From Nanobdellota archaeon (GTDB lineage Archaea; Nanobdellota; Nanobdellia; Woesearchaeales; JBBSVZ01): a stretch of DNA of 57,776 bases. Shown here in pieces: positions 12,509 through 40,662 of this stretch. Below the pieces are notes generated by a model that searched no databases, was not told the DNA's origin, and saw nothing but the letters and a program-made list of their open reading frames with translations. The stretch is from positions 1 to 57,776 of the forward strand of contig JBBSVZ010000005.1 in the NCBI GenBank assembly GCA_038046545.1. The letters run 5' to 3'. A program made the translations under genes and the position numbers. Each line of letters begins with the position of its first letter. Position 1 is the first letter of the stretch.

Positions 12509-12567
12509 GTTTTGGGGAATTAATATTCTTGTTTAAAAATATTTTTAACTGGCTGGCTATTCAGAAA

Positions 12568-12577
12568 CATTTAAAAG
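12568..12577 (+). promoter_or_regulatory. TATA box (CATTTAAAAG) for transketolase
   Basis: Lies 23-32 nt upstream of ATG 12600. Confidence 0.4.
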
Positions 12578-12599
12578 AATCCCCTAAGACCAGTGAGAA

Positions 12600-13427: not shown

Positions 13428-14373
13428 AGATTTTTCTAGTAAACAATATCCCAGGGATGGGTTTGGACATGCACTTCTCGAGCTTGCAGAAAAAAATCCG
13501 AGAGTAGTTGCATTAACCGCGGGAGTTTCAGAATCGGTAAGAACTCATTGGTTCGCAGAAAAGTTTCCAGATCGTTTCTTTCAGATGGGTATTGCAGAAC
13601 AAAACATGATAGGCGCTGCTGTAGGCCTTTCCTTAACAGGGTTTATCCCATATGCATCATCTTTTGGTTCATTCATGCCATCGCGCTCATTCGACCAAAT
13701 AAGAGTTTCAATGTGCTACAATAAGGTTAAAGTCAATTTGGTTTCAACACACTGTGGCTTAAACACTGGCGAAGATGGCGCTTCTGCCCAGATGATGGAA
13801 GACTTTTCAATGATGCGCGCGCTCCCGAACATGACTGTCATCGCACCCTGCGATTACCTTGAAACAAAAAAAGCTGTCATAGCTGCTGCAAATTATCCTG
13901 AATCTGTTTACATAAGAGTTGGAAGAGAAAAAACCCCAGTAATTACAACTGAATCAACACCTTTCAAAATTGGAAAAGCAGAAATCTTTAGGGAAGGGAA
14001 GGATGTTACAATAATGGCTTGCGGCTTAATGGTTTTTGAAGCAATAAAGGCTGCAAAAGAATTAGAAAAACAGAACATCAGCGCAGAAATTATCAACCTT
14101 CACACGATAAAGCCAATAGATTCTGAGGCAATCATTAAGTCTGCAAAAAAAACTGGAGCTGTTGTAACAGCTGAAGAACACCAGATTTACGGTGGAATGG
14201 GAAGCGCCATTGCTGAAGTCCTGTCGCAGAATTATCCAGTTCCGATGAAAATGGTTGCGATGAATGATGTTTTCGGAGTTTCAGGTAGGATGGACGAATT
14301 GTTCAAAGCGTATAATCTTGATTCTTCTGCAATTGTTAGACAGGCTCTTGCCATTATGAAACTGAAAAAATAA
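13411..14373 (+). CDS. tkt: Transketolase, C-terminal (pyrimidine-binding) subunit
   Basis: Motifs GIAEQNMIGAAVGLS, TGEDGASAQ and EEHQIYGGMGSA. Confidence 0.9.
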   Translation: MKMLAEDFSSKQYPRDGFGHALLELAEKNPRVVALTAGVSESVRTHWFAEKFPDRFFQMGIAEQNMIGAAVGLSLTGFIPYASSFGSFMPSRSFDQIRVSMCYNKVKVNLVSTHCGLNTGEDGASAQMMEDFSMMRALPNMTVIAPCDYLETKKAVIAAANYPESVYIRVGREKTPVITTESTPFKIGKAEIFREGKDVTIMACGLMVFEAIKAAKELEKQNISAEIINLHTIKPIDSEAIIKSAKKTGAVVTAEEHQIYGGMGSAIAEVLSQNYPVPMKMVAMNDVFGVSGRMDELFKAYNLDSSAIVRQALAIMKLKK

Positions 14374-17300: not shown

Positions 17301-20300
17301 AGTAAGTCTCACTTGATGAGCGCCAATGGACGAATAGCCGGTAAATGGTGCAAATTCACCAGTAAGAATAGGTGCGCTTGGATTATTGATGTCTGTTTCC
17401 CAGGTGTAACTGATTATTTTATCATTATCATAGGACAAGCTTGCATCAAAGGAAAGTGTCTTTTCAACTACCGCGTATTTATTTGAATCCGTTATATGGT
17501 CTGGGAAAGCCTTAGCAAAAGGCGGAATATTATCCCCGACAAATAATTGTTTTGATGCTGCGTTATTTGAATAATTTTTTTCCTGGAATTCGTTAAACGG
17601 AGAGATCATAACAATTATGGTGTGGTTGCCAAATGATTTTGCTTTCCAAACTATCCTTGCAGTAGCAGTGCCTAAAGAACTTACATTTATTGTGCCAAAA
17701 CCAATGGTCTCATTGCCGTCCTTAAAATCTATCTCTGAGTTATTTGCAATACCCTTCCTAATGTTGTGTATTACCGCAGATATTGTGACATTATCGCCAA
17801 CGTTTGGTGTTGCATTTGAAAATGTGATATCTGATGCATTCAACGTGAGGTCAGGAAGCCTTTCTACAAAGAATGCATCGAAGGCTGTTCTATTTACTAT
17901 CGCACCACTCTTATTGACCAGGCTGGTATTTACAGACGCCACTAAATTAACCATATGCAAGTCCTCGAATTCCGGGCTTGTAGTGAACTTGTTTGCGTAT
18001 ATGCCATCGTTTAATTGGTTATCACCATGCAGGCCATCATCAAACAGTTTTATAGCCGCTAAAACAGGAGTCGCGTTTTCAAGGCTAAAGTTATCAAACC
18101 TGCTTATGTAAGCTGTTACATTCGCTTTAGCAAGCGGAGCGCCTTTGTATGCGACATATCCAAATATGCTTACATTATCCCCTGGCTCATAGGAGTATGT
18201 CGAGTTTCCAATTGCTAAACCGACAAACAAACTTGTTTTGAAGGCAACTGAAGCATCATATTTTACACCCTGCGGACATGTTACATTCGTGCCGGTAACA
18301 ACCAAGCTCCAATTTCCAGACTGAGTGGAGTTGATGGCAAACATTATTTCGCCATCTGTTTTAAAAAATACGATAGTTGAGTTATCAGAGTTTGCGGAAG
18401 TAATTACAGTCTGGCTTGGAGTAATTAAAGATAGTTCAATATTATTTGCACAGTTCTCATAATCGTCAATTGTTCCGTTGTAAAACGCGTCAATTGACCT
18501 GTATGTAAGCTTCACCCTGACATCTTCAGCCAACTCATCTAACTTGAAGCTGTGCGATTTTACTTGGCTATTATTAAGTATACCGCTAAAGGGTCCTATC
18601 AACTCATAAGCTGTTCCATTGGCAGTTTCATTAATATCCATTTGACTTTCATTCGCAATAATACCGCCCATAAAGCCCGGCGAGTGTGTAAGGAAATCTT
18701 CAGTTATGTTGATTACATCATCGTCTTTGGTCAAAAACCAGTGGAAGGTGCTTAATCCAGTAACTTTAACATTGCTTACATCTGGGCCATCATATATCTT
18801 CCCACTAACTGTATTTGTCCACAAATCACCGAACCATACGAATAAAACACCAAACGTTTTTCCAAGAACAGGGTCAGTCAATTTTAGTGTAGTCAGGGTT
18901 AATGGCAGGGAAAGATCTCCAATAGCTGGGCCAACGCCATAGATAGACAAATATTGAATATTATTATTTAGAGTATCTGGTCCCGGGGGCTGCCATTTGT
19001 ATAAAGCCCATTCAGGCGCAGGGTCAATGCCGTTTAAGTTCAAAGTTTCAATAAATGTCGAATGAGGCTCCATCTGCCCGATGGCCTCGCCCAGTATGAT
19101 TTCCACAATGGAATTAGCTATATCAGCTATAATCGGAGGCAACCCGCCTGAAGAAACGAGAGCAGTAATTGCTGTTTTAATTACTATTGGCCCATACTTG
19201 GCCATGTCAGCTCCATGCAAGGGAGTGCCAACCAAGATAATCTTTCTTACATCAAAATTAGAACCATATGTTCCATAATGCTGAGCAGCTAATCCACCCA
19301 TTCCAGAACCAACAATATCGATTTTGTCGACTCCAGTCTGCGCCCTGATTTCTGTTACTTTCTCACCTACTACTTTTGCTGATGATTGTATCGGTTGATT
19401 GGCAAATTTTACTCCTAGTAAAGAGCTGCTTAGTGTTAAACTAGACTTGAAGTATGTAAAGTCAACGGGATGAGTGCTATTTGGGCCTGTAACCTTTGGA
19501 GGTTCAATACCGTTTATGCACGCAATAACATTTATAGTATTGTTTGGAAAGTCATTCAATTTCGCTAAATATTTGTTTGTCAAAATATCATACTGAATTG
19601 CGTAACCGGCTGTTTCATTGCTGCCTTTACCCGCATTTACAGCTGAACCAACTCTTTTAAATTCTCTAAGATTTGCCCACTCCCAGACCTTTCTTGTAAC
19701 TCCTTCAAGCTTTGTACTGTCGTTATATTTTTTTACAAAGATTTTAGCGGCAAGTGGTTTATTTGTAGCCTTTGCCATGGGGCAATTTTGATTTTGAATA
19801 CCTGTCTCGCCACATAAGTCATTTCCTTTACAGTCGCACTTATCTTGACTGACCTGAGTAGGTAAGGATTCCGTTCTAAAACAATTATCTCCACAATAGG
19901 TTTTATAACCACTATAATGTGTTAAATGGATATACCCCCGGCCTTTATACCCTGCCCCTCCTTCATAAGCTCCATTAATGTAATCTGAATCGGGCAATGC
20001 ACTACAAATATGGGTTAAATTTTTTCCACTTATATTAAAATTGGGTAAGGTACCATCCTTTAATTTTGGTTTATTTTTATATACCTGATGTTTTTGAATA
20101 TATACAAAGTATGTTGCAGATTTATCTGGTTTGTGTTTCGTTTCACTTGAGCAACAGTTTCCCGCTGCCGAAGTTCCTCCAAAACAACAACTTCCGTTCG
20201 TCATCTGGCAACCTCCCCCGGCACCAAAATCTCCAATTTCTTCAAATTCATTAAAATTCGTTCCAGTTTCCAATGTTAATGTGCCTATAATAGCCGCTAA

Positions 20301-23300
20301 CAGTTCTGAAGTAAGATTAATTTTAGATACGTTAAATTCCTTTTCAATATTAGAAAGGGCTTCCCAAAGATTATCATAGTTGCTTATCGGAGCCCCTACA
20401 TTATTAGACTTAAACCACTTTTTGAAATTACTTTTTACTACATCACAACTATCTTCAATTTCTAAATCAGTACACGGACTATGACAATATGCCAAAGTGC
20501 CAGTATTAATTACCAAAGTTCCAGTACCCGTTCCTCCTATAACTGGATTAGGTGAGTCTGCGGTTTTTTCTGGAAGATCTGCATGAAATATTTCAATCTC
20601 ATTCGGAAAGTCTGTAACAACTGGATCCCCAGGTGGATCAACTTTAACATTAATTTCTGATATGTAAAGAGCTCCATCTAATTTTACCTTGTCGTCCTTA
20701 AAAGATGGCTTTATATCTTTCACTACTAAGGCAAATCCAGTTTCAGCTGTTATGCTCTTGAATTGCTTTGTGAATGTCTTTTGAAAGACTGTGTATTGCC
20801 CAGGAACCTTTATTACCCCGGTTTCAACCAGTCCCTGGATAACAGGTTTTACTTTTTGAGGTAGAGGAACTGGAATAGAAACTTCTGCAATTTTAGTCTC
20901 AGGGTTCAGGGAAAATTCGATTTCAAACTTATAATTGTCTAACAATTGGTTGAAAACTTTTTCTGGAAATTCGTCTGGATTATCATAATATAATTTTATT
21001 TCACTTAGAACAGAATCTACATCGTCATTTTCTGTAAAATTGATAATCCTGTCTAAAATCTTAACAGTACTATTTATGGTATTAACCAAACCTGTTTGAT
21101 TCTTAGCCCTGAAAGATATCAGTTGCAAAGTGGATTTCAAATCATACGCAGATTCTCTCAGTTTGCTCTTGGCTTCAATTATGTTCTGGGTTGTAGCCGC
21201 TCCGCCAGGACTGCCTCCTGAGCTGCCAGCTATAGCTTTTAAATCTTTTACATCTTGGACAAACTCCCTTCCCTGCTGCAAAACTAAATAAATGAATGCG
21301 ACTGTTTCAATTCTTGGATCTTTCAAAGGAATTATATAATTTATTTCGATATCTACCGGCTTTCTAAGATCGACGTCAAAAACCTGAAAGCCATCGCTTT
21401 CCAAGTCTTCTTTCATTTTTTTCATTTCTTTAGGACTTCTTAGGTAGTCGTGAACCAGCAGCACAGGCCTTCTGATGACGTCTATGTCCTTTGAGACATT
21501 TTTGGACCAAGTTCCTGCATTGTCTTTAACTCGGAATGTTACTTTTTGTATTCCTAAAGCAGCTGCGGTAAATGTGTGAGCAACTACACTGCCATTTATA
21601 ATCTGGTCTTCGATAATCCATTCTTGATTAGTAACGAAACCGTCATCGTCAAAGCCAAATCCATTAAACTCTACGGGTTCTCCAACAATTGCAGATAATT
21701 TTCCTTTATTATCTGTAAACCCTTTGATATATCTAATGAAAGCTGTAGGAAGTTTATTGACAACAAGCGGTTTTCTTGAGTCTGCATTTTGCGGCGACCA
21801 TAATCCAATAACATCCTTGACAAAATAATCAATTATGTGAGGATTTGCCGGAGGCAGCAAGTCTGTTGATATCGAGCTGGTAGAGCTTATATTAACAACT
21901 CCTCCTATTTTGCCAACCTTATGCGATTGCCACCAATGCTCTCTTATATCAAGTCCTGGAATTCCATAACCATTAAAATCAATTGTTTCTTTAACCAACG
22001 CAACAGGGAAGGGATTGATAGTATCGATAAAAGCGCTTGGAGGCGTGGTATTCATGGAAACATACAGAGCATCTGACTTAGGCCCTACCGAAGGATCGAA
22101 GCCATCCATCCAACCGAAAAACTGTCCAGCCTCTACAACACCATCGCCATTATAATCCCTGTATATCGCTGGTTGTGAGCAGTTCTGGCAACTAACAGTA
22201 AATTCTACAGAGAAGGCCGTGTCATTGTTGGGGGCGCTAACATCAAAATGAGTGGCGTTCTTTGTGCCTTCGCTCCTGTTCAACTTATTCGCATCAGATT
22301 CTTGAGCCTGCCATGGAATTGTGAAAAAAGTGATGGCGAAGAGCTCCTTGGTATTGTAATCCATTGATAATTTTACGTTTGGATTATCTGTTTCAAGCTG
22401 GTATTTAATTAATTCAATTGTATTATTGATAGTGTGGGGAAGCCCTGTGCCAAACCCTAAATTGTAATCGGTAACAAGTTTGTTCGGCTCTCCATAGCTA
22501 ACTGTACCGTTACAAAAATCGGTTTGAGTTTTAGACCAGTCTCTGTTTTTAAGGCCACTTGCATCCAACTTGTACCCTAAGGTCACCCACCCTTTAAGCC
22601 AGGCACCTCTATTGCAATATTTAGTAACTGGAACTGTAAACAAACTACTGCTGGGAAAAGATGGAGTACCGATTGAATATTCCCCCCTTGTTTCCTTGAA
22701 TGTGTTTTCAGATGATCCAGAATAAGTATACCCTCCAGGAGCTGATATTCTTATATAACCATCCTCCTCAGAGCATTTTTTTAGAAGCGTGCCTTTTTTC
22801 TCTAAAGTCTGCGTCTCGGTTACAGTAATGTAATCAGTAAAAGTTTCTCTTCCTACTGCTTTTATTTTACATGTAAAATCTTGGGGAACACTTTCAGAGC
22901 CTGATGCAAATATTTCATAATCAAATGGATGGTCCAATATTTCCGCATTTTTTTTTCCTGCATGCAATTCTATTTCTGGTTCATAAACTATCCAGGCGTA
23001 AAACTCAGCACTTTTGTCAGTAATAAATATGTCGCTTCCCGGATTTCCATAGTACGTATTCCCTCCAAAAGTTATGGACATTTCATTAATTTCAACTATA
23101 TCTGCGTTGCATTCATTTGTAAGATTTACAATAAACTTATCGAAATCTGTGTCATTGACATTCCCGGGTCCTGTTTTTTGGCATTGACCGCCTGACGATG
23201 TGACAGCGGTGACGTTCCAGATAAAAGAGTCGTTTGTCGGCTGCGGGCATGGCTCATCTATTGCAACTGTAATCGATGTGATGTTATCAATAGGAATTGT

Positions 23301-23849
23301 GTTAGCTGATGAATTAAAAATGTCAGTTTCTGTCAAGAAAACCGAGGTAATGCCTGAACTTAGCGCTTTTAGCGTGTATCTTCCTAAAACGCCCTTGGAA
23401 CCTCCGGGCTCTGCTGTGCCTGTGTCAACAACACTAACAAAGTGAGAACCATCGGTATCAATTACTTGGTCACTAAAATCAGCAAGGGTGCTTCCAGGTT
23501 GAGAAGATAAGAGCAATCCATGATCATGTCCATTAACCGAAAGCAAAATATTATTAAAAAAAATTTTATAGGTGAATCCTGCCAGATCTTTATCTAATGG
23601 GATAGAGTCTACGAAGGTATCTATATCGAATGTGGAGTTAGTGGCTACAGAAATGCAATAATCTATGGTTCCTAAAGATGTTGCATCATTTCCTGCCGGA
23701 TCTGCATCAATGCCTACAGTAGTTCCTGGATCGGCATTAACAAGACCTGAAAAAAGTATTGCCAGACCTACAAAAATGGAAAGAATAATTGCAGATTTTC
23801 CTATACGTCTTTGCAACCTCGTAATCCCCCGCCCACGAACAAATACCAC
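14382..23849 (-). CDS. Giant (3155 aa) multidomain secreted/surface protein, GTG start
   Basis: A single uninterrupted ORF with an N-terminal signal anchor. Recognisable segments include CARDB, PKD and thrombospondin type 3 repeats, a long parallel beta-helix (PbH1-type) repeat region, a GH19-like segment and a degenerate lipase-like segment (see findings). Confidence 0.9.
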   Translation of the reverse strand: MVFVRGRGITRLQRRIGKSAIILSIFVGLAILFSGLVNADPGTTVGIDADPAGNDATSLGTIDYCISVATNSTFDIDTFVDSIPLDKDLAGFTYKIFFNNILLSVNGHDHGLLLSSQPGSTLADFSDQVIDTDGSHFVSVVDTGTAEPGGSKGVLGRYTLKALSSGITSVFLTETDIFNSSANTIPIDNITSITVAIDEPCPQPTNDSFIWNVTAVTSSGGQCQKTGPGNVNDTDFDKFIVNLTNECNADIVEINEMSITFGGNTYYGNPGSDIFITDKSAEFYAWIVYEPEIELHAGKKNAEILDHPFDYEIFASGSESVPQDFTCKIKAVGRETFTDYITVTETQTLEKKGTLLKKCSEEDGYIRISAPGGYTYSGSSENTFKETRGEYSIGTPSFPSSSLFTVPVTKYCNRGAWLKGWVTLGYKLDASGLKNRDWSKTQTDFCNGTVSYGEPNKLVTDYNLGFGTGLPHTINNTIELIKYQLETDNPNVKLSMDYNTKELFAITFFTIPWQAQESDANKLNRSEGTKNATHFDVSAPNNDTAFSVEFTVSCQNCSQPAIYRDYNGDGVVEAGQFFGWMDGFDPSVGPKSDALYVSMNTTPPSAFIDTINPFPVALVKETIDFNGYGIPGLDIREHWWQSHKVGKIGGVVNISSTSSISTDLLPPANPHIIDYFVKDVIGLWSPQNADSRKPLVVNKLPTAFIRYIKGFTDNKGKLSAIVGEPVEFNGFGFDDDGFVTNQEWIIEDQIINGSVVAHTFTAAALGIQKVTFRVKDNAGTWSKNVSKDIDVIRRPVLLVHDYLRSPKEMKKMKEDLESDGFQVFDVDLRKPVDIEINYIIPLKDPRIETVAFIYLVLQQGREFVQDVKDLKAIAGSSGGSPGGAATTQNIIEAKSKLRESAYDLKSTLQLISFRAKNQTGLVNTINSTVKILDRIINFTENDDVDSVLSEIKLYYDNPDEFPEKVFNQLLDNYKFEIEFSLNPETKIAEVSIPVPLPQKVKPVIQGLVETGVIKVPGQYTVFQKTFTKQFKSITAETGFALVVKDIKPSFKDDKVKLDGALYISEINVKVDPPGDPVVTDFPNEIEIFHADLPEKTADSPNPVIGGTGTGTLVINTGTLAYCHSPCTDLEIEDSCDVVKSNFKKWFKSNNVGAPISNYDNLWEALSNIEKEFNVSKINLTSELLAAIIGTLTLETGTNFNEFEEIGDFGAGGGCQMTNGSCCFGGTSAAGNCCSSETKHKPDKSATYFVYIQKHQVYKNKPKLKDGTLPNFNISGKNLTHICSALPDSDYINGAYEGGAGYKGRGYIHLTHYSGYKTYCGDNCFRTESLPTQVSQDKCDCKGNDLCGETGIQNQNCPMAKATNKPLAAKIFVKKYNDSTKLEGVTRKVWEWANLREFKRVGSAVNAGKGSNETAGYAIQYDILTNKYLAKLNDFPNNTINVIACINGIEPPKVTGPNSTHPVDFTYFKSSLTLSSSLLGVKFANQPIQSSAKVVGEKVTEIRAQTGVDKIDIVGSGMGGLAAQHYGTYGSNFDVRKIILVGTPLHGADMAKYGPIVIKTAITALVSSGGLPPIIADIANSIVEIILGEAIGQMEPHSTFIETLNLNGIDPAPEWALYKWQPPGPDTLNNNIQYLSIYGVGPAIGDLSLPLTLTTLKLTDPVLGKTFGVLFVWFGDLWTNTVSGKIYDGPDVSNVKVTGLSTFHWFLTKDDDVINITEDFLTHSPGFMGGIIANESQMDINETANGTAYELIGPFSGILNNSQVKSHSFKLDELAEDVRVKLTYRSIDAFYNGTIDDYENCANNIELSLITPSQTVITSANSDNSTIVFFKTDGEIMFAINSTQSGNWSLVVTGTNVTCPQGVKYDASVAFKTSLFVGLAIGNSTYSYEPGDNVSIFGYVAYKGAPLAKANVTAYISRFDNFSLENATPVLAAIKLFDDGLHGDNQLNDGIYANKFTTSPEFEDLHMVNLVASVNTSLVNKSGAIVNRTAFDAFFVERLPDLTLNASDITFSNATPNVGDNVTISAVIHNIRKGIANNSEIDFKDGNETIGFGTINVSSLGTATARIVWKAKSFGNHTIIVMISPFNEFQEKNYSNNAASKQLFVGDNIPPFAKAFPDHITDSNKYAVVEKTLSFDASLSYDNDKIISYTWETDINNPSAPILTGEFAPFTGYSSIGAHQVRLTVIDAAGNIGTDTFNVNVVSEDEYDLEPPSAFAGPPQRVHIRDPIQFSAVGSFDNFSIASCKWDIDVTRDTDGNGIPDDDVDLITCHPKLERGYPTLGRYRVKLEIDDVAGNGPVFDHTIIEVSDPIDYICVGDQDCDGINDEEDNCKTVKNPDQADYDNDGVGDACWCTFKVSGMVDGQLNSAISLAQPGNVICLTTSLFSNADISKSNIIFDCLGNSITGNGTGVGINIGSTITNTTVQNCVVEDYFKGIEIKGNNNKIRNNEVQLNTGNGIVITGSGGQVINNQVCDNGLDISSTGSYTGDYNSCNITSGWNDQGSSGCSFACHTCTTPTDNMDIVSNTVLCPGTYTLPNGINIAASDVKVKCDNTVLVGNNSNTGIEVIGQTNIKIKDCEVKNYNTGISFEDSPFCEAANNKILENIDGIYITETSSPDAARIAPGIINNCRIHDNRIDDNLRFGIFLVNSPNNEISSNALLNNKNASAVLESAMTTTIKNNIMTNGLLLTSSSSNSIFNNNLSSTNGVYVVNISGGSGNQFTSNEIHDSFLYGFAVSSSSNTFTNNHVYSLPIGFFVSGSNNQVNGGKIEDVETGISFQGSSNSKIDGVDTKSANSNSILIALSSGISVVNSTTKNIILDSSSSSNLTSNSGSIELHNSNGIKISYNNVSGGISGISIELGSGNNVLSNTIANNEVGIVIFNSTTNTIKDNNVSNNQIGIFINNFSNTNLVYNNFFQNIINAQNQGRNNWNITKTAGLNIYGGLFLGGNFWSDYNGTDTNGDGIGNTMLPYNSNGSITLGGDYLPLLDGDNDNDTVTNRLDNCPLISNPNQKNTDKEIQLNDTAAPFFIGDNIGDVCDPDWDNDGFNNTNEVLIGTNPFDPCGIDGWPADFVNGSIPNSTNRITIADVTSFLAPIRRMNTNLNESPDNKRWDLVPGKGLFTTDINIQDLTSLIAGPTAFPPMLGGAKAFNGPECPIPP

Positions 23850-32767: not shown

Positions 32768-32881
32768 TCCACCTCGAAGAATTCTCTTTAAACTGGCATA
32801 TTTATAAATTATGTGAATTGTTTAAATATGGCATTTAAATAGTGTTTTCTTAATCTCCTGTTCTCTGCTTTGTCGGATGAT

Positions 32882-32922
32882 GAATACTCACTTTTCAAGC
32901 ACTACTCCGTATAGTGCCTAAC
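32882..32922 (-). repeat. Left arm of a 41-nt imperfect inverted repeat (reads GTTAGGCACTAT...AAAAGTGAGT on the minus strand)
   Basis: The reverse complement matches 39188-39228 at about 29 of 41 positions, including a perfect 12-mer and a perfect 10-mer. Confidence 0.55.
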
Positions 32923-33523
32923 TATCTGGCCTTCTATATTTGCTTTTATGCCAGTTAATGCGTGAATTTTGTTTGATGGCTTTACTTCTCTGCTTGTTAT
33001 TTGCCAGTTGCTGTTTTGGGGCGGTCTCCTTTGTAATATCTGTCAGCTAGTAAGTGGAAAACTCGATTAAAACTTTTAATCTGTTTAATTTTACCGAGTC
33101 GTATTCTTTTCTTTCTTTGACTCACCCTTTTCTGATCCCTGCTTATTCCTTCTCTAATCCTCACTTTTTACTCTTGGAACAGTAATTGGCGTTATCAAGG
33201 TCGAAAATACCCTCATCTCGCTGAATCATTGATTCTTTATTTTCATTATTGAAAATAAATCATATCGTATCTACTGTAAAATGTGTGTTTTGAAATAATT
33301 ATTCATATCTGTTTCTCAAAACAGATTGTATCTGAAATAATGGTTCTACTGGTGTCTTATTCTACTAAATATTTTGATTATAAGTTAAATATATTAGTTT
33401 TATTATAACTGATAATAAGTAATAAAAGATTAAATATTTTAATTATAAATCAATGAAAATTCACTTGGTTTTTATCGAAATTATTAATAAACTTTTTAAA
33501 CAAACCATTAACACTCAGGTGGT

Positions 33524-34420
33524 ATGAGTAACCTCGCAAGAGTAGTAACATCTGCAGTTGGATTGGGCCTTGTCAGCCTCAGCGTAGTAGGGTGCAGACA
33601 AAATAACGAAGCGACTATTTTACCAACACCCGTCGTAGAAGCTCCTTCAGACCCAAATTGCACTCCAAAATATGTTTCAGAATCAGGCTCCACAGTCGGG
33701 CCGGTTGCAGAAGAATTCGCTAGAAAATTCCAGACTTTCAACGGTTTTGTCGGCGGCAACTATGTTGATAAATCTGAAACGGGGAAAAATATGCCATTTG
33801 GAAACGCTTATGCAGATGGAAATCTTTCAGGAGACCTTTTTGGGCAGTACATGATTTTAATTCATACTCCTACGAAGCAATCATTAGTCTTTGAGTTCTA
33901 CGGGGGTGTCATCGACGCTGTCTGTAAGAACGGGGGCGGGAACATTTATGCGAGCATTAGCCCTCTAAAAGATGCAGATTCTGAGCGCGTTCTCAAATAC
34001 GCTTTGAAAGCAAATCCAAACGATGTGGTGTTGGGAGTTGGATTGGTAAACTACAAAACATTTAAGGTCACAGAAAGCGGCGTTCCTTCTCACCCTGTAT
34101 CCGTGGATGATATAGTCGATGCTGCGCTCACGATTCCAAACGAGGAATATGAAAAGGCAACGAGATATAGAGAGCAGGAAGGGAGAAGTTACTCAACTGT
34201 TTCGATCGAAGTCGAAGGCCTGAAATTTTATGGATTTTCAGCATCGGAACTCCCAAGCACTCTTTACAGGCCATTTGACAAGGACCCAGCAAATTACATT
34301 GTTGTTGCAACCGATTTCAGCGTCGATTTAACTTCTGTTGTTAACAGAAAGGCTCTCGAGGCGGATAATCAAGCAATTACAAGGAATCTAGAGCGCACTG
34401 AAAACTTTTTTCATGAGTAA
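33524..34420 (+). CDS. Lipoprotein-like secreted protein (hypothetical), paralogue of 34452-35333
   Basis: Lipobox-like LSVVGC. Shared motif NAYADGNLSGDLFGQYMILIHTP. Confidence 0.6.
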   Translation: MSNLARVVTSAVGLGLVSLSVVGCRQNNEATILPTPVVEAPSDPNCTPKYVSESGSTVGPVAEEFARKFQTFNGFVGGNYVDKSETGKNMPFGNAYADGNLSGDLFGQYMILIHTPTKQSLVFEFYGGVIDAVCKNGGGNIYASISPLKDADSERVLKYALKANPNDVVLGVGLVNYKTFKVTESGVPSHPVSVDDIVDAALTIPNEEYEKATRYREQEGRSYSTVSIEVEGLKFYGFSASELPSTLYRPFDKDPANYIVVATDFSVDLTSVVNRKALEADNQAITRNLERTENFFHE

Positions 34421-34451
34421 CTATAAATAAAGCTCAAGAACTCACACGATA

Positions 34452-35333
34452 ATGAGAAGATTATTTCTGCTTGGTGGTACTGGATTAGCAGCAATTGTCA
34501 TGGCGTGCAGCTCCGGAGGAAACAGCAGCTCGCCAACTTCTACTGGACAGCATTCGGATGAATATGATTTTATCTGTAATGACATGTCAAACCCTGATGA
34601 CATCTCCCAAAATATTATCGACACGAAATCGGAGTTTATAACAAATTTCCAAGGCTATGAAGGATTTAGTGAAGAAAATTTTTCTAATTTGAGAGAAAAA
34701 GGACAACGTCTTCCGGCAGGTAATGCTTATCGCGACGAAGATTTGCATGGCGACCTTTACGGTTTGAATATGTTATTTGTGCATTTGCCTTCAAAAACTG
34801 TCGATATAGTTACTTCATATTTTGGGACGATAGATGCATTGTGCTTTAGAGAAGATAATATCCCTTACGTTTTGGTCAACCTTCCTGATGATTTATTGAG
34901 CCAAAAAATAATCCAATATTCTCCAAAATCAGCCCCCCTTTTCGGAAAAATTCAAGTACAAACCTCGGGACCGAGGATGTATCCAATCAACAATAAGACA
35001 ATTGCTGAATCTCCTGTTACAATTGATGAATTAATGGAATCAATCAATAAGATCCCTGATTCGGATTATGCAAAAAAATTCAAGGAGGTTCCAAATTGGC
35101 ACGTGGAAATAAAAGGAATAAATTTCGAAATTGAGTCTGGACTTGCCTATAGTCTACACCCTTTATTCAATCAAGATGGCGATACGGATCCTTCACATTA
35201 TGTAATTGTTTCAGTGCCTTTTAGCATAGACGCCAGCTCAGAACATAACAGTCCGATTTTTAATTCAGTTCAAGACCCGTCGACTATTACAAGGTATCCA
35301 GCGGGCTCCTCACTTTCTTCAGTTCCTCAGTAG
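34452..35333 (+). CDS. Lipoprotein-like secreted protein (hypothetical), paralogue of 33524-34420
   Basis: Lipobox-like AAIVMAC. Motif NAYRDEDLHGDLYGLNMLFVHLP. Confidence 0.6.
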   Translation: MRRLFLLGGTGLAAIVMACSSGGNSSSPTSTGQHSDEYDFICNDMSNPDDISQNIIDTKSEFITNFQGYEGFSEENFSNLREKGQRLPAGNAYRDEDLHGDLYGLNMLFVHLPSKTVDIVTSYFGTIDALCFREDNIPYVLVNLPDDLLSQKIIQYSPKSAPLFGKIQVQTSGPRMYPINNKTIAESPVTIDELMESINKIPDSDYAKKFKEVPNWHVEIKGINFEIESGLAYSLHPLFNQDGDTDPSHYVIVSVPFSIDASSEHNSPIFNSVQDPSTITRYPAGSSLSSVPQ

Positions 35334-36099
35334 AGACTTTAGTGTAAATCTGAGTTGTCTGCAGATTGGAATGGCCTAAAAGCTCCTGTATTTTTCTGAT
35401 ATCGGTGCCGTTTTCCAATAGATGAGTGGCAAAGCTGTGCCTGAGCGTATGTGGAGTTACTCTCTTGCTGATGCCTGCCTTTAAAGCTGTCCTTTTGACC
35501 ATTTTTTGCACGTTTCTTGGTGTCAAAGGCAGACCTGAAGAGTTGATGAAGATATGGCCGCTGGGAGCTTTCTTTTGGCTTACAAATGAAGCAAGCTCTG
35601 CAATCAGGCTGTCGGAAAGAATTAGCAACCTATCTTTCCTGCCTTTGCCTGAACGTACCCATCCGATCTTTTCTTTTGATTCCAAATCCTCGTGCTTTAG
35701 GTGGACTAATTCGGATACTCTCAATCCTGACGAATAAAGCATTTTCAGCATGAGCTTGCTCTTGCCATTTTTTGCTGAGTTGATAAGATTCTTTACTTCA
35801 TCTTTAGACAAAACTGTCGGCAGTTTTTTGCTGATTTTTGCCGTCTTGAAATGAACGACGTTCTTGTTCAAAATTTCGCCGTAATAGAACTTTAGCGCGG
35901 CTTTTATCAGAGCAATTGTGTTCTGCGAAAGCCTTTTCTTAATCAGCGAACCGATGAATCGCTTTACATCATCTTCAGAAATGTCTTTTGGCTCTTTTTT
36001 TATCCACTTCAGGAACCGTGCATTGTGGGAAAGGTAAGCCTTTGCAGTGTGTTCTGATACGCCTCTCAACTGCAATTCTGTTTCTAAATCTTCAAGCAT
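35287..36099 (-). CDS. xerA: Tyrosine recombinase, XerA (XerC/D-like)
   Basis: N-terminal SAM-like domain. C-terminal motifs SGLRVSEL, RHSFATHLLENGTDIRKIQELLGHSNLQTTQIYT. Confidence 0.85.
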   Translation of the reverse strand: MLEDLETELQLRGVSEHTAKAYLSHNARFLKWIKKEPKDISEDDVKRFIGSLIKKRLSQNTIALIKAALKFYYGEILNKNVVHFKTAKISKKLPTVLSKDEVKNLINSAKNGKSKLMLKMLYSSGLRVSELVHLKHEDLESKEKIGWVRSGKGRKDRLLILSDSLIAELASFVSQKKAPSGHIFINSSGLPLTPRNVQKMVKRTALKAGISKRVTPHTLRHSFATHLLENGTDIRKIQELLGHSNLQTTQIYTKVSTEELKKVRSPLDTL

Positions 36100-36141
36100 A
36101 GAAAACGATATTATGCGAACACTTGCTTAAATAGGTATTGT

Positions 36142-36495
36142 TTATGCTCGGCTATTTCCTTGGTCTAAAAAATCCATTGCAAATCTGGTTAAGTTTATGT
36201 AAAGATCATTAGTTGCCGCGATTCCTTCTAATGAATGATCTTTCACGCTAAGTTTTAAATTAACACTTGATTTTCCTTTTCCAATAATAGTTGCAGTTTC
36301 ACCATAGGTAATATTGAATTCTGAAGCTTGTGATTGCCCTTTAACCGAAGCGCGATATCCATCTAATAGACTTCTTGGGTGAGTAGTATGTCTAATTTGT
36401 TCGGCCATCAAATAATCACTTAATTCAGTGGTGAATCTGGTACGATCTTCACGTGTAGAAACGTGAGTCGATTCAATTTTAAAATTATATTCCAT
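36142..36495 (-). CDS. Hypothetical protein (117 aa)
   Basis: ORF with a TATA-like element upstream. No motif recognised. Confidence 0.45.
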   Translation of the reverse strand: MEYNFKIESTHVSTREDRTRFTTELSDYLMAEQIRHTTHPRSLLDGYRASVKGQSQASEFNITYGETATIIGKGKSSVNLKLSVKDHSLEGIAATNDLYINLTRFAMDFLDQGNSRA

Positions 36496-36555
36496 TTTAA
36501 TGTAGCTAATTTAATGATATTTATAAATCTTTTTATTTTTGTTACTTGATGGTAA

Positions 36556-36996
36556 TTACAAGAACTCGTCCTTATCAGCTTCTTCGGGATCAAATAAATC
36601 TGGATCCAATTCGGCTTCCCCATCGTGGTACTCATAACGTGTTCCGCCCTCAACAACTTTAAGGGTGACGTGCTGCGAGAGTTTTATGAGAATTTTTTTC
36701 AGATAATCGAGCGCTGCGCCAGTCGCATCAGCACTGCCAGAAAGCTTTTCGTCAGGGCCAGGATAATAAAATTTGACACCATAAACATCAAGATAATATT
36801 CGTCACCATCTTTTTCGAGCTTTAATCTGTTGGAATTAGCCATGATAGTTATGTCGTGCTTTATCCGACGTCCAACTTCCTTTGCTACAGCGTGCTCCTC
36901 AGAAAGGCTCTTGTGTTTCATCTCTTCCAAGAGCTTTGCTTTATCCTCTTCAGAGAAATCGTTGACATCAACCTGCTTCCATGCGATCTTGACCAT
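36556..36996 (-). CDS. Hypothetical acidic protein (146 aa)
   Basis: ORF with the TATA CCTTAAATAT 20-29 nt upstream of the ATG. Acidic C-terminal tail. Confidence 0.5.
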   Translation of the reverse strand: MVKIAWKQVDVNDFSEEDKAKLLEEMKHKSLSEEHAVAKEVGRRIKHDITIMANSNRLKLEKDGDEYYLDVYGVKFYYPGPDEKLSGSADATGAALDYLKKILIKLSQHVTLKVVEGGTRYEYHDGEAELDPDLFDPEEADKDEFL

Positions 36997-37029
36997 GGTT
37001 TATTCTAAGGAGGGAGAGATATTTAAGGT

Positions 37030-37422
37030 TTATTGCTTTCTAGAATCAGTTATATCATCAATGCTTGAATAACTTCGTTTATTCTCATTTCTTAGAGATA
37101 TCGCATTAGTGATGGCTGGGATGGCAATTATCCACGCTTTATCATCCAAATCTGAGATTGCACCATAAGCAATTCCTAGTTCAACATAAATTGCAGCAAT
37201 TCCACAAACGGTTCCAGAAACTTTACCAATTATCCGATAATAAGCCGATTCTGCTGAATTAGGCAAGGAAACCTTTTCGCTTTGTTCTTTATTTTTCTTG
37301 ATGCCATCATAAGTTTCCCGGACTACTGAAGGAAAGCGGAAAGGTAATGTCGCCAAATATGCTGAGCTCTTGAAAAAGTATTTCGGAAACTCTAGGTGGG
37401 GATCATTTATTTTTTCTGTCAT
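37030..37422 (-). CDS. Hypothetical membrane protein (130 aa)
   Basis: Two hydrophobic segments (GTVCGIAAIYVELGIAYGAI and WIIAIPAITNAI). Confidence 0.45.
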   Translation of the reverse strand: MTEKINDPHLEFPKYFFKSSAYLATLPFRFPSVVRETYDGIKKNKEQSEKVSLPNSAESAYYRIIGKVSGTVCGIAAIYVELGIAYGAISDLDDKAWIIAIPAITNAISLRNENKRSYSSIDDITDSRKQ

Positions 37423-37551
37423 GGGGCTGGGTAATTATCTAAAATTTATCAATTTTATCCAACTGCTGAAAATTGAACTTTTCTGAAAATGGTATAATGT
37501 GCTTTTTAGTATTCTAATATACTAATAACTATCATCAAATCACGTTTTTAG

Positions 37552-37575
37552 TTCGCATAATGTATATTATGCGAA
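37552..37575. promoter_or_regulatory. Perfect 24-nt palindrome TTCGCATAAT-GTAT-ATTATGCGAA
   Basis: Read directly from the sequence, in the spacer between two ORFan genes. The half-site ATTATGCGAA recurs at 36110-36119, between the xerA TATA and ATG. Confidence 0.35.
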
Positions 37576-37618
37576 TGTTAGCTAATCCTGAAGAAAAAAT
37601 AGTGTATTGAAAATATAT

Positions 37619-38392
37619 TTACATAAATATGGTTCTGTCCATATGGAACAGCATTTCATCCCTGCGCTTAAAGCTTTCCATCCTGACTGCTTTAGCAGCC
37701 TCATCATGGATTCTGTCAACAACAGCTTCGCTATTGGGCTCTAAATTCTTGTAGATGGGTCTGCTAACGCACAAATATCGAGCAATTTTGGCAGGATAAA
37801 AAGCATAGAGTGATGTTCCTAAAGCAACATCCTCATCAACTCCTTGTGTGCGAAGCAAGTAATAAAGGCCTACAGTTGCAGCTCCAAATGCAGTTCCAAT
37901 AGCCCTTCCAAATAACGAACCCTCAATTAGCTTATATTCAAGATATCTGCCCATAAAAGCAGTATCAGTTTCATTTCCTTCTTTTAAAGTATCATAGCCA
38001 ACTATGTAATTCGGAACTTGCATTGGCATCCCCAAATGATTTCTTGCACCAAACACGGCAAGAAATTCGTGAGTTGTTGAATAAGCTGCAACAGTCCAGG
38101 CTAATCGATAGGCTTCGCCCATAATGCCGTTGATCACATTAAATTTAAGGAAATTCTTTTCACTTTTGCTGTGAGGGTCCAATATGTGTATGATGTCTTC
38201 AAGAGAAGGTTTTGCCACGGGGTGAGTTATTGCTTTTTTTATAGTCGATATTCCTGATTTGATCTTTTCTGCCAAGGTTGAATTTTCTGTTTGTGTTCTC
38301 CTCAAATTTCCCAAACGTCTTCTTGAATAAGCGTCGTCAAGCAGAGTTTGGCCTAAAGAGTCCTGCAAGAACGCAGCATGATTAAGAGTCAT
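37619..38392 (-). CDS. Hypothetical protein (257 aa), partly hydrophobic
   Basis: ORF with the TATA CTTATAAAAC upstream. No motif recognised. Confidence 0.5.
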   Translation of the reverse strand: MTLNHAAFLQDSLGQTLLDDAYSRRRLGNLRRTQTENSTLAEKIKSGISTIKKAITHPVAKPSLEDIIHILDPHSKSEKNFLKFNVINGIMGEAYRLAWTVAAYSTTHEFLAVFGARNHLGMPMQVPNYIVGYDTLKEGNETDTAFMGRYLEYKLIEGSLFGRAIGTAFGAATVGLYYLLRTQGVDEDVALGTSLYAFYPAKIARYLCVSRPIYKNLEPNSEAVVDRIHDEAAKAVRMESFKRRDEMLFHMDRTIFM

Positions 38393-38428
38393 AAACTTAT
38401 AAAACGTAGAGATTATAAAATTATTTTG

Positions 38429-38749
38429 CTAATCAGAATTTACCTGTTCATAAATCTCGTGCCAGAGACCGTCGACAACTTTGTGCTGCTCTTTAAACGG
38501 CTTTGCTGCAGTATTAATTTTTGCTTCCTCTATTCTGTCAAATAAAATTGCACCGGAAAAAGGTGATTCATTGTGCAAAGCAAGTTGGACCCATGATGAT
38601 AATGTGGAAGGTGGATTTTGCAAATTCTCGTGCCAGGACCTTGCTATGCCTAGCTTTTCTGAGAGGTAGTTCTGCATATTCTCGAAAGCTTCGCTCACGT
38701 CTGGGTGGAGCTGACTATCATTTTTAAATTCAACCATATTGGTATACAT
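38429..38749 (-). CDS. Hypothetical protein (106 aa)
   Basis: ORF at the head of the minus-strand ORFan string. Confidence 0.45.
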   Translation of the reverse strand: MYTNMVEFKNDSQLHPDVSEAFENMQNYLSEKLGIARSWHENLQNPPSTLSSWVQLALHNESPFSGAILFDRIEEAKINTAAKPFKEQHKVVDGLWHEIYEQVNSD

Positions 38750-39187
38750 AAGAGGCTACTAATATTTAAATTTATCTATTAGTTTTTTGATGAATTGATT
38801 AATTTCCTTATTGAAAATAATCGATTATTGGGTTTGAAAAACCTGTAATTTAGATTAAATATTTTAGTTTATACTTATATTATTGTGCTCTTTATGGGAT
38901 TAAATATTTTAATTAATTATCATAATATTTATTATGTTATCTAATTACTATTTTAATAAGAGTATTCTGGAAAAATATTATTGTTTTGAATGTATGTGAA
39001 AAATTATGATGTAAAATATATGTTGAAAGAAAGATTAATTGCTAGATTGAGTGTTTGAAATCATCCTTTACAATGAAAAAGTGAGTTTTTGATTACCAAA
39101 TTGAATACTTTCTTTGAAGGTTAGCGTTATTTGGATCTTAGACATTCTTCAAAAGTAGGGGATATTTGCTATTCGTTAATACGAAAA

Positions 39188-39228
39188 GTTAGGCACTATC
39201 TGGTGGTATGGTGTAAAAGTGAGTGTTG
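39188..39228 (+). repeat. Right arm of the 41-nt imperfect inverted repeat
   Basis: GTTAGGCACTATCTGGTGGTATGGTGTAAAAGTGAGTGTTG, compared with the reverse complement of 32882-32922. Confidence 0.55.
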
Positions 39229-40662
39229 CTAAGGCAATATCCCGCTTTCAGCCACTATATCCCAGTATTCAACCCCAAAATGAAATGGATCGTCAAAAAA
39301 TTGCTTTAAAACAGCGCCTGATTCGGGCGTTATTCGAAAATCTGAGGCGCAATAAAGCTGTTGCTCTGGCTGGCCCATCACCCCCCAAAAAATGGCGCCA
39401 TGGACTCGTCCTTCATTCGCTAACTTCGAAAAAACAGTAGCTGTTGTCCTGTAATAATTCATTTGCTCGTCGGTGAATGAAGGAATTGTTTCGACCAAAC
39501 CACCCGGAAATAAACAGCCAAAGGGATAAGCAGAATTGCTATTGTTCGAGCCTGTCTCAGTTAAAAGTGAGTATTGTTTTCCAGTGAATATTGTACTAAG
39601 AGTTTGTTGGAATGGACTTGGAATAAAACTTCCAGTGCTTTGCTCGAATTCTGCTCCTGTAAACTGCCTTATCGCTGAGGCCTGATCAAATGGAGTCGTA
39701 TCGCCTCTTCTGGCAGCTAATTGATTCCTTGCAGGACTATATGAGTTAGTCCCATTCACAAATAGCCCAAAATCCTGAGTGTCGTCGAAATTTGGCTGAT
39801 AGGTCATAACTCCATCGTAGCTATGCTCTAATTCCTTGAGCAAACCTGCAAATTCTGGCCTTTGCTGGGCAACCCTCATCTCATCAAACATGACCAACAA
39901 AGGAACGTTATTTGCATGGGCAAAATTCACATAATCCATCCCCGTATTTTTCAAATTCCGTAGCCATTCAGCCCATTCCGCTTCTCCAAAATATTCTCCG
40001 ATAGAAGCTCGCCAATTCGTTCCAAGGCGGGCAGATTCGGCTGCGGTCGGGTCAATCTGAATTCTTATTCCGGGAACCAAACCATGCTCCCGAGCTTTAC
40101 CTACTGCATATTGCAGGGAGTTGTCTGCCGGTCCGGTTTTGAAAAACTGAGTCCCTTCATTCTCAACAGTCGTCAAAAAAACAACCGTGTTTGCATGGTA
40201 ATCATCCCTTATCTTATCGAGCATCGTATCCAGGTCAACAGTTGTATATGCTTCGGGAGCCCAACCTAGAACATAAACACCTCTAACAAATGCATTTGTG
40301 TGCACCATTAAATGGTCCCAAGCTAATTCTTCTTTGATGTTAGGGTCGGTGTATCCTCTAAGAAGTTCCTGTTCTAATTCACTTATCCTGCTGTAATAAT
40401 AATTTAATCCTGTGTTGTATTCAGGCAAATTTCCAAAAAGTTGATCTAGTCTTGTAGAATAAGGGTGAGGAGTTGGTTTAGGTGTTGGCGAAGCTGTGAT
40501 AAGAGGCGTTTGGCTAGACGGAATGTTAACTGTTGAAATACCATTGTTCGACTGTCCTAAGACGTTATCTAGCTGAGTGTAAACTTGCAATCCAAGAAAA
40601 GTTGAACTTGCACCTATCAATCCTGCAACAACTCCTGCTCCTACCAACTTTTTTATATTCAT
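39229..40662 (-). CDS. Secreted/anchored protein with a Pro/Thr linker and a putative TIM-barrel glycoside-hydrolase-like domain (tentative)
   Basis: N-terminal TM, a TPLITASPTPKPTPHP linker, then alternating beta/alpha pattern. 4-nt overlap with the upstream GT2 gene. Confidence 0.35.
   Translation of the reverse strand: MNIKKLVGAGVVAGLIGASSTFLGLQVYTQLDNVLGQSNNGISTVNIPSSQTPLITASPTPKPTPHPYSTRLDQLFGNLPEYNTGLNYYYSRISELEQELLRGYTDPNIKEELAWDHLMVHTNAFVRGVYVLGWAPEAYTTVDLDTMLDKIRDDYHANTVVFLTTVENEGTQFFKTGPADNSLQYAVGKAREHGLVPGIRIQIDPTAAESARLGTNWRASIGEYFGEAEWAEWLRNLKNTGMDYVNFAHANNVPLLVMFDEMRVAQQRPEFAGLLKELEHSYDGVMTYQPNFDDTQDFGLFVNGTNSYSPARNQLAARRGDTTPFDQASAIRQFTGAEFEQSTGSFIPSPFQQTLSTIFTGKQYSLLTETGSNNSNSAYPFGCLFPGGLVETIPSFTDEQMNYYRTTATVFSKLANEGRVHGAIFWGVMGQPEQQLYCASDFRITPESGAVLKQFFDDPFHFGVEYWDIVAESGILP

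Follow-up and report, generated by a model that had tools for sequence, protein, structure and literature searches.

The stretch analysed here, referred to as the window, covers positions 1-57,776 of contig JBBSVZ010000005.1 of a Nanobdellota archaeon. Our subject is a block of ~6.3 kb within it that carries a tyrosine recombinase gene, xerA, between two non-coding spacers that hold an inverted repeat. The window belongs to a groundwater Woesearchaeota (DPANN) archaeon of the Hainich aquifer, whose ENA and Logan assemblies contain identical contigs, and the XerA loci nearest to that of the window all come from metagenome-assembled genomes (MAGs) of Woesearchaeota. The block comprises two plus-strand genes, lipo1 (33524-34420) and lipo2 (34452-35333), the minus-strand xerA (35287-36099), and five small minus-strand genes, o117 (36142-36495), o146 (36556-36996), o130 (37030-37422), o257 (37619-38392), and o106 (38429-38749). 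It is flanked on the left by trx-GDH and on the right by a GH113-like gene with a GT2 gene. The G+C fraction of the block is 0.34-0.38 in parts, compared with 0.41 across the window.

The two spacers lie between called genes at 32768-33523 (756 nt) and 38750-39228 (479 nt). An initial interpretation of the DNA, the sequence-only reading, had located them correctly and called them the two longest gaps of the window. However, when gaps were compared on the basis of open reading frames (ORFs) of at least 100 aa, those at 5408-6314 (907 nt) and 1638-2120 (483 nt) exceeded the right spacer. The former holds ORFs of 66 and 57 aa and the latter an antitoxin-like ORF upstream of a ParE-type toxin gene, so the description holds only if these small ORFs are real genes. 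The outer inverted repeat reported for the spacers is real. Its 41-nt arms (32883-32923 and 39187-39227) are 76% complementary, and the 31 of 41 matching positions exceed the best score in all 300 dinucleotide-preserving shuffles of both spacers (mean 25.6, sd 0.95, maximum 29). A perfect 12-mer, GTTAGGCACTAT, was confirmed and occurs within the window only in the two arms. Exact copies of AAAAGTGAG number six in the 57.8 kb against 0.96 expected, and five of these are at or near the spacers, on the minus strand on the left (32887 and 33160) and on the plus strand on the right (39077, 39215, and 39563). The inner copies at 33160 (-) and 39077 (+) confirm the second inverted 10-mer of the sequence-only reading.

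In an alignment of the spacers, the conserved parts of the outer repeat are its two perfect cores, TTAGGCACTAT (M1) and AAAAGTGAG (M2). The proximal site, nearer the 3' end of xerA, spans 32887-32921 on the minus strand and consists of TTAGGCACTAT (M1, 32921-32911), a 15-nt linker, and AAAAGTGAG (M2, 32895-32887). As read from the sequence, its M1 and linker form a 10-7-10 near-palindrome, TTAGGCACTA-TACGGAG-TAGTGCTTGA, with 8 of 10 arm positions matching. The distal site (39189-39223, plus strand) has the same composition, TTAGGCACTAT, a 15-nt linker, and AAAAGTGAG, and abuts the stop codon of the GH113-like gene; the 10-7-10 palindrome is absent from it.

An exhaustive search with o146 returned three homologues, and their contigs opened the comparison of loci, designated here by L numbers; L214/L215 were reached through a homologue of o106. 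At ~75% protein identity, L087 reads PAC2 - spacer - o106 - ... - o146 - ... - xerA - 690-nt spacer - trx - GDH - PCMT. At ~50% identity, L089-L091 read o106 - ... - o146 - ... - xerA - ... - 750-nt spacer - trx, then PCMT, and GDH was not detected in these loci. The full block is present in L214 in the same order, with o106 (74%), o257 (35%, by tblastn), o130 (28%), o146 (84%), a 128-aa gene in the position of o117 whose similarity is undetectable, XerA (85%), and one lipoprotein (45%). Given this synteny, the block is ancestral in the window's clade. Within it, xerA, o146, and o106 are well conserved, while o257, o130, o117, and the lipoproteins are very fast-evolving positional orthologues. 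The conserved partner gene o146 is also 76% identical in L087 and 46% in L089, and o106, the first gene inside the distal site, 53% in L087 and 34% in L090. The sequence-only reading had described the gene content accurately, except that the recombinase is a clear XerA equivalog and two of the five ORFans it listed, o146 and o106, have homologues in relatives. Its proposal of an integrated element, if taken as recent, does not survive, as xerA, o146, o106, and both sites are syntenic in L087, L089, and L214. It had also considered that the block might prove syntenic in relatives without the repeats; the block is indeed syntenic, but the repeats are present there too. More widely, of the 18 GTDB loci in which PAC2 is visible, 16 have it upstream of xerA and on the xerA strand, as do the window, L087, and L121, and this syntenic neighbourhood again argues against a recent insertion.

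We searched 80 xerA loci from GTDB species representatives for the bipartite motif, written as M1 TTAGGCAC[C/T]A[T/G], a variable linker, and M2 (A)AAAGTGAG. At least 15 Woesearchaeota species have xerA between an inverted, outward-facing pair, although their XerA proteins are only 54-85% identical to that of the window. The exact M1 11-mer and M2 stand on opposite strands in the window, L087, L214, L008, L010, L011, L013, L016, L018, L023, and L121; the M1 variants TTAGGCACCAG or TTAGGCACCAT take the same arrangement in L007, L009, L012, L027, and L028; and single copies are seen where contigs end (L014, L015, L021, L027, L089-91, L133, L141, L145, and L097). The proximal copy lies on the xerA strand, 230-600 nt past the xerA stop unless genes are inserted, and the distal copy on the opposite strand, 2.5-11.6 kb upstream (2.5-8.4 kb in L008, L010, L011, L013, L016, L018, and L023; 11.6 kb in L121, which came from a metagenome scan). 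In the smallest brackets, ~3 kb in L008, L007, and L012 and 1.8 kb with a variant motif in L017, there is little besides xerA, and xerA is the sole gene family found in every bracket examined. More distant Woesearchaeota (L019, L034, L038, and L039) have no M1 and keep inverted AAAAGTGAG(R)GTT arrays around xerA. When 36 loci are pooled, the density of AAGTGAG on the xerA strand rises to 8.1 per 10 kb within the first kb past xerA, over a background of ~0.5, and on the opposite strand the word is enriched at -8 to -2 kb from xerA. The repeat is meaningful and tied to the recombinase, a link that the sequence-only reading had raised as a possibility.

The linker between M1 and M2 is not conserved in sequence. 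Many species have a linker of a few nt, the window's clade and some others one of 14-17 nt, and L028 one of tens of nt; the linker also differs between the two copies of one genome. Both copies of a genome usually share the M1 variant (CCAG in L007, L009, and L012; CCAT in L028) and the class of linker length. Compact sites have the form TTAGGCACTAT-N5-AAAGTGAGNN, for example TTAGGCACTATGGTGGAAAGTGAGGG in L010, and share only the inner CACT/AGTG. Solitary extra copies of M2 and conserved AT-rich boxes occur on the inner side of each copy. No M1 or M2 was found between the genes inside the block, which, together with an integron-integrase model below its cut-off, led us to reject an integron. 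IMEX-type integration would predict another, degenerate site where the flanking islands end on the far side, and a search there gave nothing convincing. The metagenome motif scan returned mostly chance hits and an unrelated coding family with a 20-nt linker, although it still yielded L097, L121, L133, L141, and L145. That family, apparently coding and marked by TTAGGCACTATTTAGGGGGATTATTGGGAGAAAGTGAG, inflated the scan with L103, L109, L113, L114, L120, L137, L139, L163, and L165, and with the further contigs L177, L178, L182, L187, L194, L197, L200, and L205. A scan of viral contigs gave three pattern matches, none of the three in a xerA context. Near the ends of bacterial contigs of 57-59% GC we also observed a head-to-head M1 palindrome, ATAGTGCCTAA-N3-TTAGGCACTAT followed by GAAGTGAG (perfect in L131, 3410-3460, and L207, 220-260; with one mismatch in L181, 1200-1240), whose likeness to the archaeal motif may be a coincidence.

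The surroundings of the sites follow a common plan. Upstream, the usual order is Lon - MscS - PAC2, none to four variable genes, the distal site with M2 outermost, and conserved AT-rich boxes. The interior holds variable small genes (DedA/VTT, DUF378, Zn-ribbon/AbrB-like, HNH, and ORFans) and then xerA, which is followed by AT-rich boxes, ~120 nt of more G+C-rich DNA, the proximal site, and then either aIF5A, wHTH, and DUF655 or trx. The orientation is the same in 19 of 21 species. In L039, PAC2 has the opposite orientation and is found immediately past the proximal M2, as a single inversion between the sites would leave it. Four population contigs that span parts of the block are all collinear with the window. 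The DNA just outside the sites turns over: a vapBC pair adjoins the distal site in L013, L016, L121, and L128 and the proximal one in L021 and L023, oriented alike with respect to the site. The block of L214 is the same as that of the window but has different DNA outside both sites, with a Type ISP restriction enzyme gene (11076-14168; N6_Mtase, MmeI_Mtase, and Type_ISP_C) outside the proximal site, in the place that trx-GDH takes in the window, and another glycosylation cluster beyond the distal one. In the window, GH113, GT2, p207, and p443 stand between the distal site and PAC2, and L087 lacks them. Degenerate inverted M1-like copies were also noted in L214 at 10732 and 10760. In another Woesearchaeota clade, the first gene inside the distal site encodes a conserved coiled-coil protein of 64-66 aa (MxxFE...SFxAAKA..ELKRSMNEW..FLD; L016, 4430-4630; L018, 6829-7023; homologous positions in L010, L011, L023, L121, and L128). 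ORF callers chose a spurious opposite-strand ORF over this gene, and no relationship between it and o106 was detectable.

The recombinase was assigned with the NCBIfam equivalog model NF040815, recomb_XerA_Arch, which it matched with 266.2 bits (cut-off 220). The XerC, XerD, and integron-integrase models all fell below their own cut-offs; the integron-integrase model TIGR02249 reached 217.8 against a cut-off of 265, with its match in two pieces. Pfam shows the two-domain fold of Phage_int_SAM_4 and Phage_integrase. The best PDB match is XerA of P. abyssi (4A8E), aligned end to end with E = 5e-54, and relative to it the catalytic R-K-H-R-H/W-Y motifs are intact (GLRVSEL, GKGRKDR, HTLRHSFATHLL, and LGHSNLQTTQIYTKV are conserved). 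Orthologues number one per GTDB species representative at 54-65% identity, and a neighbour-joining tree of XerA agrees with the motif clades. These sequence comparisons indicate that XerA is a vertically inherited chromosomal gene and not a mobile-element integrase. The sequence-only reading had offered a housekeeping XerA as an alternative, and both the equivalog assignment and the P. abyssi match bear it out. The 3' ends of the convergent xerA and lipo2 genes overlap by 47 nt (35287-35333), compared with 26 nt in L214.

The spacers contain several further elements. The inner copy of AAAAGTGAG on the proximal side (33160-33168, minus strand) is conserved in L087, L145, and L214, and its counterpart on the distal side, from the exact-copy scan, lies at 39077-39085 (plus strand). 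An outlying M2 copy, AAAAGTGAGTATT (39563-39575, plus strand), sits within the 3' coding part of the GH113-like gene and matches 32883-32895 perfectly over 13 nt in inverted orientation. It has the GTATT extension seen at the proximal site and may mark where a site once lay, or may have arisen by chance. M3, a 22-nt near-palindrome, TTATTTTCA-TTAT-TGAAAATAA (33237-33258), is conserved in L087 and L145 and has a second copy in the right spacer (38799-38820); TTATTGAAAATAA at 33246 and 38808 is part of it. The AT-rich boxes at 33363-33452 (80% A+T) are TATA-box-like and include two copies of M4, TAAATATTTTRATTA, and homologous boxes sit inside both sites in other Woesearchaeota. Copies of GATTAAATATTTTAATTA start at 33428 and 38898, and degenerate ones are seen at 33363 and 38853. 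The AT-rich inner part of the right spacer (38750-38930; 82% A+T) is ~80% identical to L087 and contains the promoter-like TATA box of o106, M3, and M4 copies at 38853 and 38898. These AT-rich inner repeats are enriched in the window. All of the inner direct repeats of the sequence-only reading are present, but the GATTAAATATTTTAATTA and TTATTGAAAATAA motifs are near-palindromic, so the label "direct" is ambiguous. The hairpin at 33307-33326 does have perfect 8-bp arms and is not conserved in the relative L145. A mirror-image strand composition of the spacers was recovered only in part, with 38% purine in the left outer part and 55% in the right. Logan contigs of run ERR3858133 break in the right spacer with a 20-nt overlap (L003 starts at 38809 and L006 ends at 38828), for which the simplest cause is low coverage of AT-rich DNA.

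As for the other genes of the block, lipo1 encodes a putative lipoprotein, with an N-terminal hydrophobic segment followed by Cys, and apart from its paralogue lipo2 (28% identity) it had no homologue among 5.8 billion proteins. An orthologue of lipo2 is present as a single copy in L145 and L214 (45-52% identity), and a lipoprotein gene between xerA and the spacer was seen in this sub-clade only, duplicated in the window. The ORFan o117 precedes o146 in the row from xerA outwards, and o130 has one predicted hydrophobic segment. A word-indexed search of the 5.8 billion proteins with o257 returned itself alone. The AlphaFold model of o146 (pLDDT 63) had no significant match in PDB or BFVD; recurrent sub-threshold, non-significant matches were of the PD-(D/E)XK type (influenza PA endonuclease, XisH, archaeal Holliday-junction resolvase, and splicing endonuclease). 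Elsewhere in the window, a tRNA gene with an intron (3609-3730, minus strand; 54.5 bits over 122 nt against Rfam tRNA) was missed by ARAGORN in bacterial mode and fits an archaeal origin. A giant ORF of 3155 aa occupies 14382-23849 (minus strand), and gene orientation and cumulative GC skew turn around 14-16 kb, at its 3' end; this point, ~20 kb from xerA, could be a terminus-like convergence point. At 6-1216, a gene for a Laminin_G_3/ConA-like protein adjoins one for an Imm5-like immunity protein, and the pair may be a polymorphic-toxin or immunity remnant.

Synteny and the motif survey together indicate that the block represents, in its local form, a conserved chromosomal locus of Woesearchaeota and not a recent insertion, and that the repeat in the window is the local trace of a phylum-level feature. 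The comparison across species shows strong purifying selection on the pair of motifs, on how they are oriented, and on their link to xerA. It also shows vertical inheritance of the locus, with turnover in the DNA immediately flanking the sites and in part of the interior. As to function, we tentatively favour, with confidence a little short of even, the reading that the motifs are XerA's own recognition sites, that is, an xerA/dif-type module in two inverted copies. Recognition by XerA is suggested by several lines of evidence. The sites stay linked to xerA while all else changes, the two copies co-vary, and one lineage (L039) looks inverted in the way that rare recombination between them would produce. 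The compact sites approximate the core geometry of tyrosine recombinases (~10-nt arms with a 5-7-nt centre), as does the 10-7-10 palindrome of the proximal site. Single-Xer systems with the site beside the gene are also known: xerS adjoins difSL, some archaea have an xerA/dif module, and in haloarchaea dif lies upstream of the xerA operon (PMC5357621, PMC11840125). A CACT core is common to M1 and to M2 read in reverse complement, so the two would be unequal half-sites with a CAC(T)/(A)GTG dyad. Each site copy could recombine with its identical sister copy and thereby resolve chromosome dimers. Recombination between the two copies would invert the segment; it would normally be suppressed, since the linkers differ, and would succeed rarely. 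A related option is that the sites bind XerA and do not recombine, in which case they would mark the ends of a xerA domain.

Several observations weigh against recognition sites of this kind. The spacing of M1 and M2 runs from a few nt to tens of nt, a range that a single crossover core cannot tolerate, and M2 therefore cannot serve as the second arm in all lineages. There are two copies and solitary M2 boxes where one dif would be expected. Known archaeal dif sites carry TAA-N6-8-TTA in an 11-6-11 form, as in TTTTGATATAATGTACCTTATATGACAA of T. kodakarensis (PMC2958812, PMC11840125), and both the signature and this form are absent from M1-M2. A location at the terminus is weakly supported, with the xerA strand carrying 60% of the coding upstream but 44% downstream, and with no consistent flip in GC skew. 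We hold our confidence just under one half because of the variable spacing, the missing dif signature, and the two copies with their solitary M2 boxes. A search with a Thermococcus-like dif pattern gave only chance-level hits. When the window was scanned for 11-N6-8-11 palindromes, one strong site was found, at 1911-1946 (TTTATATATAT-ATCAAC-TTATATATAAA, 10 of 11 arm positions matching). This TATA-rich palindrome of 28-34 nt lies upstream of an unannotated antitoxin-like ORF (~1638-1903) and a ParE-type toxin gene (1275-1637), and we rejected it as a dif, as it is probably the operator or promoter of the toxin-antitoxin operon.

Among the other explanations, the sites may bind a different chromosomal protein and form an origin-, terminus-, or domain-boundary-like element in which xerA is merely resident, which we regard as unlikely. 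Such an element would compare with the oriented repeat clusters around orc1, with Ter sites, or with SMC roadblocks. Two inverted clusters of a short oriented repeat, each beside a stretch of 80-82% A+T with conserved near-palindromic boxes, would suit such an element, and the variable spacing suits two separate contact boxes better than it does a crossover core. There are also precedents, in that the initiator gene of Thermococcales lies between two clusters of origin recognition boxes (ORBs) spread over 5 kb (PMC1904270), and euryarchaeal dif regions coincide with SMC boundaries (PMC11840125). The details do not follow the precedent of an origin, however: neither the ORFs of the window that were tested nor the DNA up to 10 kb from the L087 locus yielded an Orc1/Cdc6, the TTCC and GAA core of ORBs (PMC1904270) is missing from the motif, and cumulative GC skew has no inflection at 32-40 kb. 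The origin-like region of the sequence-only reading was thus not supported. Moreover, the window's genes run through the locus in one direction, and no gene other than xerA is invariably linked to the sites. By analogy with bacterial XDS sites, M1 and M2 might instead be an unrecognised class of chromosome architecture in DPANN archaea, a polar pair of XerA-binding sites with solitary half-sites that would define a dimer-resolution or termination domain; we rate this as slightly less probable again. Such Xer half-sites might then make up a fork trap or an SMC-unloading boundary, and the sites might serve as a landing pad where vapBC, restriction enzymes, and glycosylation islands accumulate. 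A further step down in probability is the view that each spacer encodes a small non-coding RNA, transcribed outward from the TATA-like boxes, with M1-M2 as its conserved 3' part and two paralogues facing away from xerA. The boxes lie 130-250 nt inside every site (~470-520 nt in the window's longer proximal spacer), although in most species xerA is followed by no further gene before the proximal site. M1 is also able to pair with M2 or with another complementary stretch downstream, in some cases with the help of G-U pairs (CACUAU/AUGGUG on the right in the window; also L021, L014, and L028), and a variable linker is typical of a loop. Yet Rfam gave no relevant match to the motif regions at gathering and E-value thresholds, single-sequence folds of 170-nt segments revealed no common or unusually stable structure, and z-scores of the fold energy were mostly -0.5 to -2. 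The stretch from the boxes to M1 shows little conservation and is not the same in the proximal and distal copies, the M1 variant CCAG weakens M1:M2 pairing, and M1 and M2, being invariant, offer no covariation. The motif is not coding either. We rejected an inward ORF starting from GTG in the reverse complement of M1 (products of 3-62 aa, not conserved) and an outward frame ending ...VRHY, which has no conservation upstream, and no other stop-free frame of more than 260 nt through M1 was consistent between species.

The remaining explanations invoke mobility. It is improbable, in our judgement, that the locus is an ancient and now immobile element, either a tyrosine-recombinase element with terminal inverted repeats or a pdif-like island, that was fixed before the Woesearchaeota clades diverged. 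A recombinase gene near one end, terminal inverted repeats, variable cargo, and smallest versions of 1.8-3 kb all resemble such an element; accessory modules stand directly outside the sites (vapBC at either end, the Type ISP enzyme of L214, and glycosylation islands), and inverted Xer sites likewise bound pdif modules (PMC6449649). Against this, nearly all species have it at the same place in the chromosome and facing the same way, each locus has a single copy and no target-site duplication, XerA is the canonical equivalog with a tree that matches the motif clades, and no viral-contig copy was found in a xerA context. A segment inverted by XerA acting on the inverted repeats, the invertible element of the sequence-only reading, is very unlikely as an active switch. 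Inverted repeats do flank a tyrosine recombinase gene, and L039 looks inverted relative to PAC2. But the orientation is near-constant (19 of the 21 species), all four population contigs are collinear with the window, and inversion would leave the expression of the edge genes unchanged, as their promoters are within the bracket. The linkers differ between copies, and there is accordingly no shared crossover core. Least credible of all, and close to negligible, is a recently integrated virus, plasmid, or genomic island with its own integrase. Its ORFan-rich content and the slightly lower G+C noted above would fit. The block is, however, syntenic in relatives at 46-85% protein identity, its edges carry inverted and not direct repeats, and its integrase is XerA. 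We found no viral, plasmid, or defence genes in the block: PHROGs matched the recombinase alone, PADLOC and BFVD gave none, and the fold search with o146 against BFVD and PDB gave no significant match.

DPANN archaea have tiny genomes, and most of their lineages are without cultures. To our knowledge, they have no defined Xer target site and no FtsK. Our full-text literature searches found no description of the motif or of a Woesearchaeota dif. A motif that stays invariant beside xerA while XerA itself is only ~55-65% identical offers a concrete candidate for the XerA target in DPANN archaea. If XerA binds it, two inverted bipartite sites with variable spacing would widen the known layouts of Xer/dif modules. 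The locus would also provide a reference point for chromosome organisation in Woesearchaeota MAGs, and would explain why toxin-antitoxin, restriction, and glycosylation genes gather there. For annotation, the lesson is that an ORFan-rich, repeat-bounded recombinase block can be an ancestral chromosomal feature and is not automatically a prophage or island.

The locus shares features with several known systems. Like archaeal oriC, with its ORBs and mini-ORBs around orc1/cdc6, it has two opposed clusters of a short oriented repeat, AT-rich stretches, a span of several kb, and a gene for DNA transactions between the clusters; unlike oriC, that gene is xerA and not orc1, the motif is unrelated to the ORB core, and there is no skew signal. 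In common with the yeast 2-micron FLP/FRT system and with Fim and Hin-type switches, a recombinase gene lies beside or inside a segment bounded by inverted repeats. In contrast to these, orientation is essentially fixed here, the crossover regions are non-identical, and no promoter or coding sequence is switched. The pdif modules of Acinetobacter likewise have accessory genes, including toxin-antitoxin pairs, beside or between inverted Xer-type sites. Those modules are plasmid-borne multi-module arrays with canonical 28-bp XerC/XerD sites and with recombinases encoded elsewhere, whereas here there is one chromosomal bracket with the recombinase gene inside and no internal sites. Compared with archaeal dif, the TAA-N6-8-TTA signature is missing from the candidate site. 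From xerA/dif and xerS/difSL, the locus departs in having two inverted sites 2.5-11.6 kb apart with solitary M2 copies and in the spacing of its boxes, which ranges from a few to tens of nt. With both it shares a single XerA-type recombinase within a few hundred nt of a short, strongly conserved, imperfectly dyad-symmetric site, and a single, chromosomal, vertically inherited locus; with difSL it also has in common what appear to be unequal half-sites.

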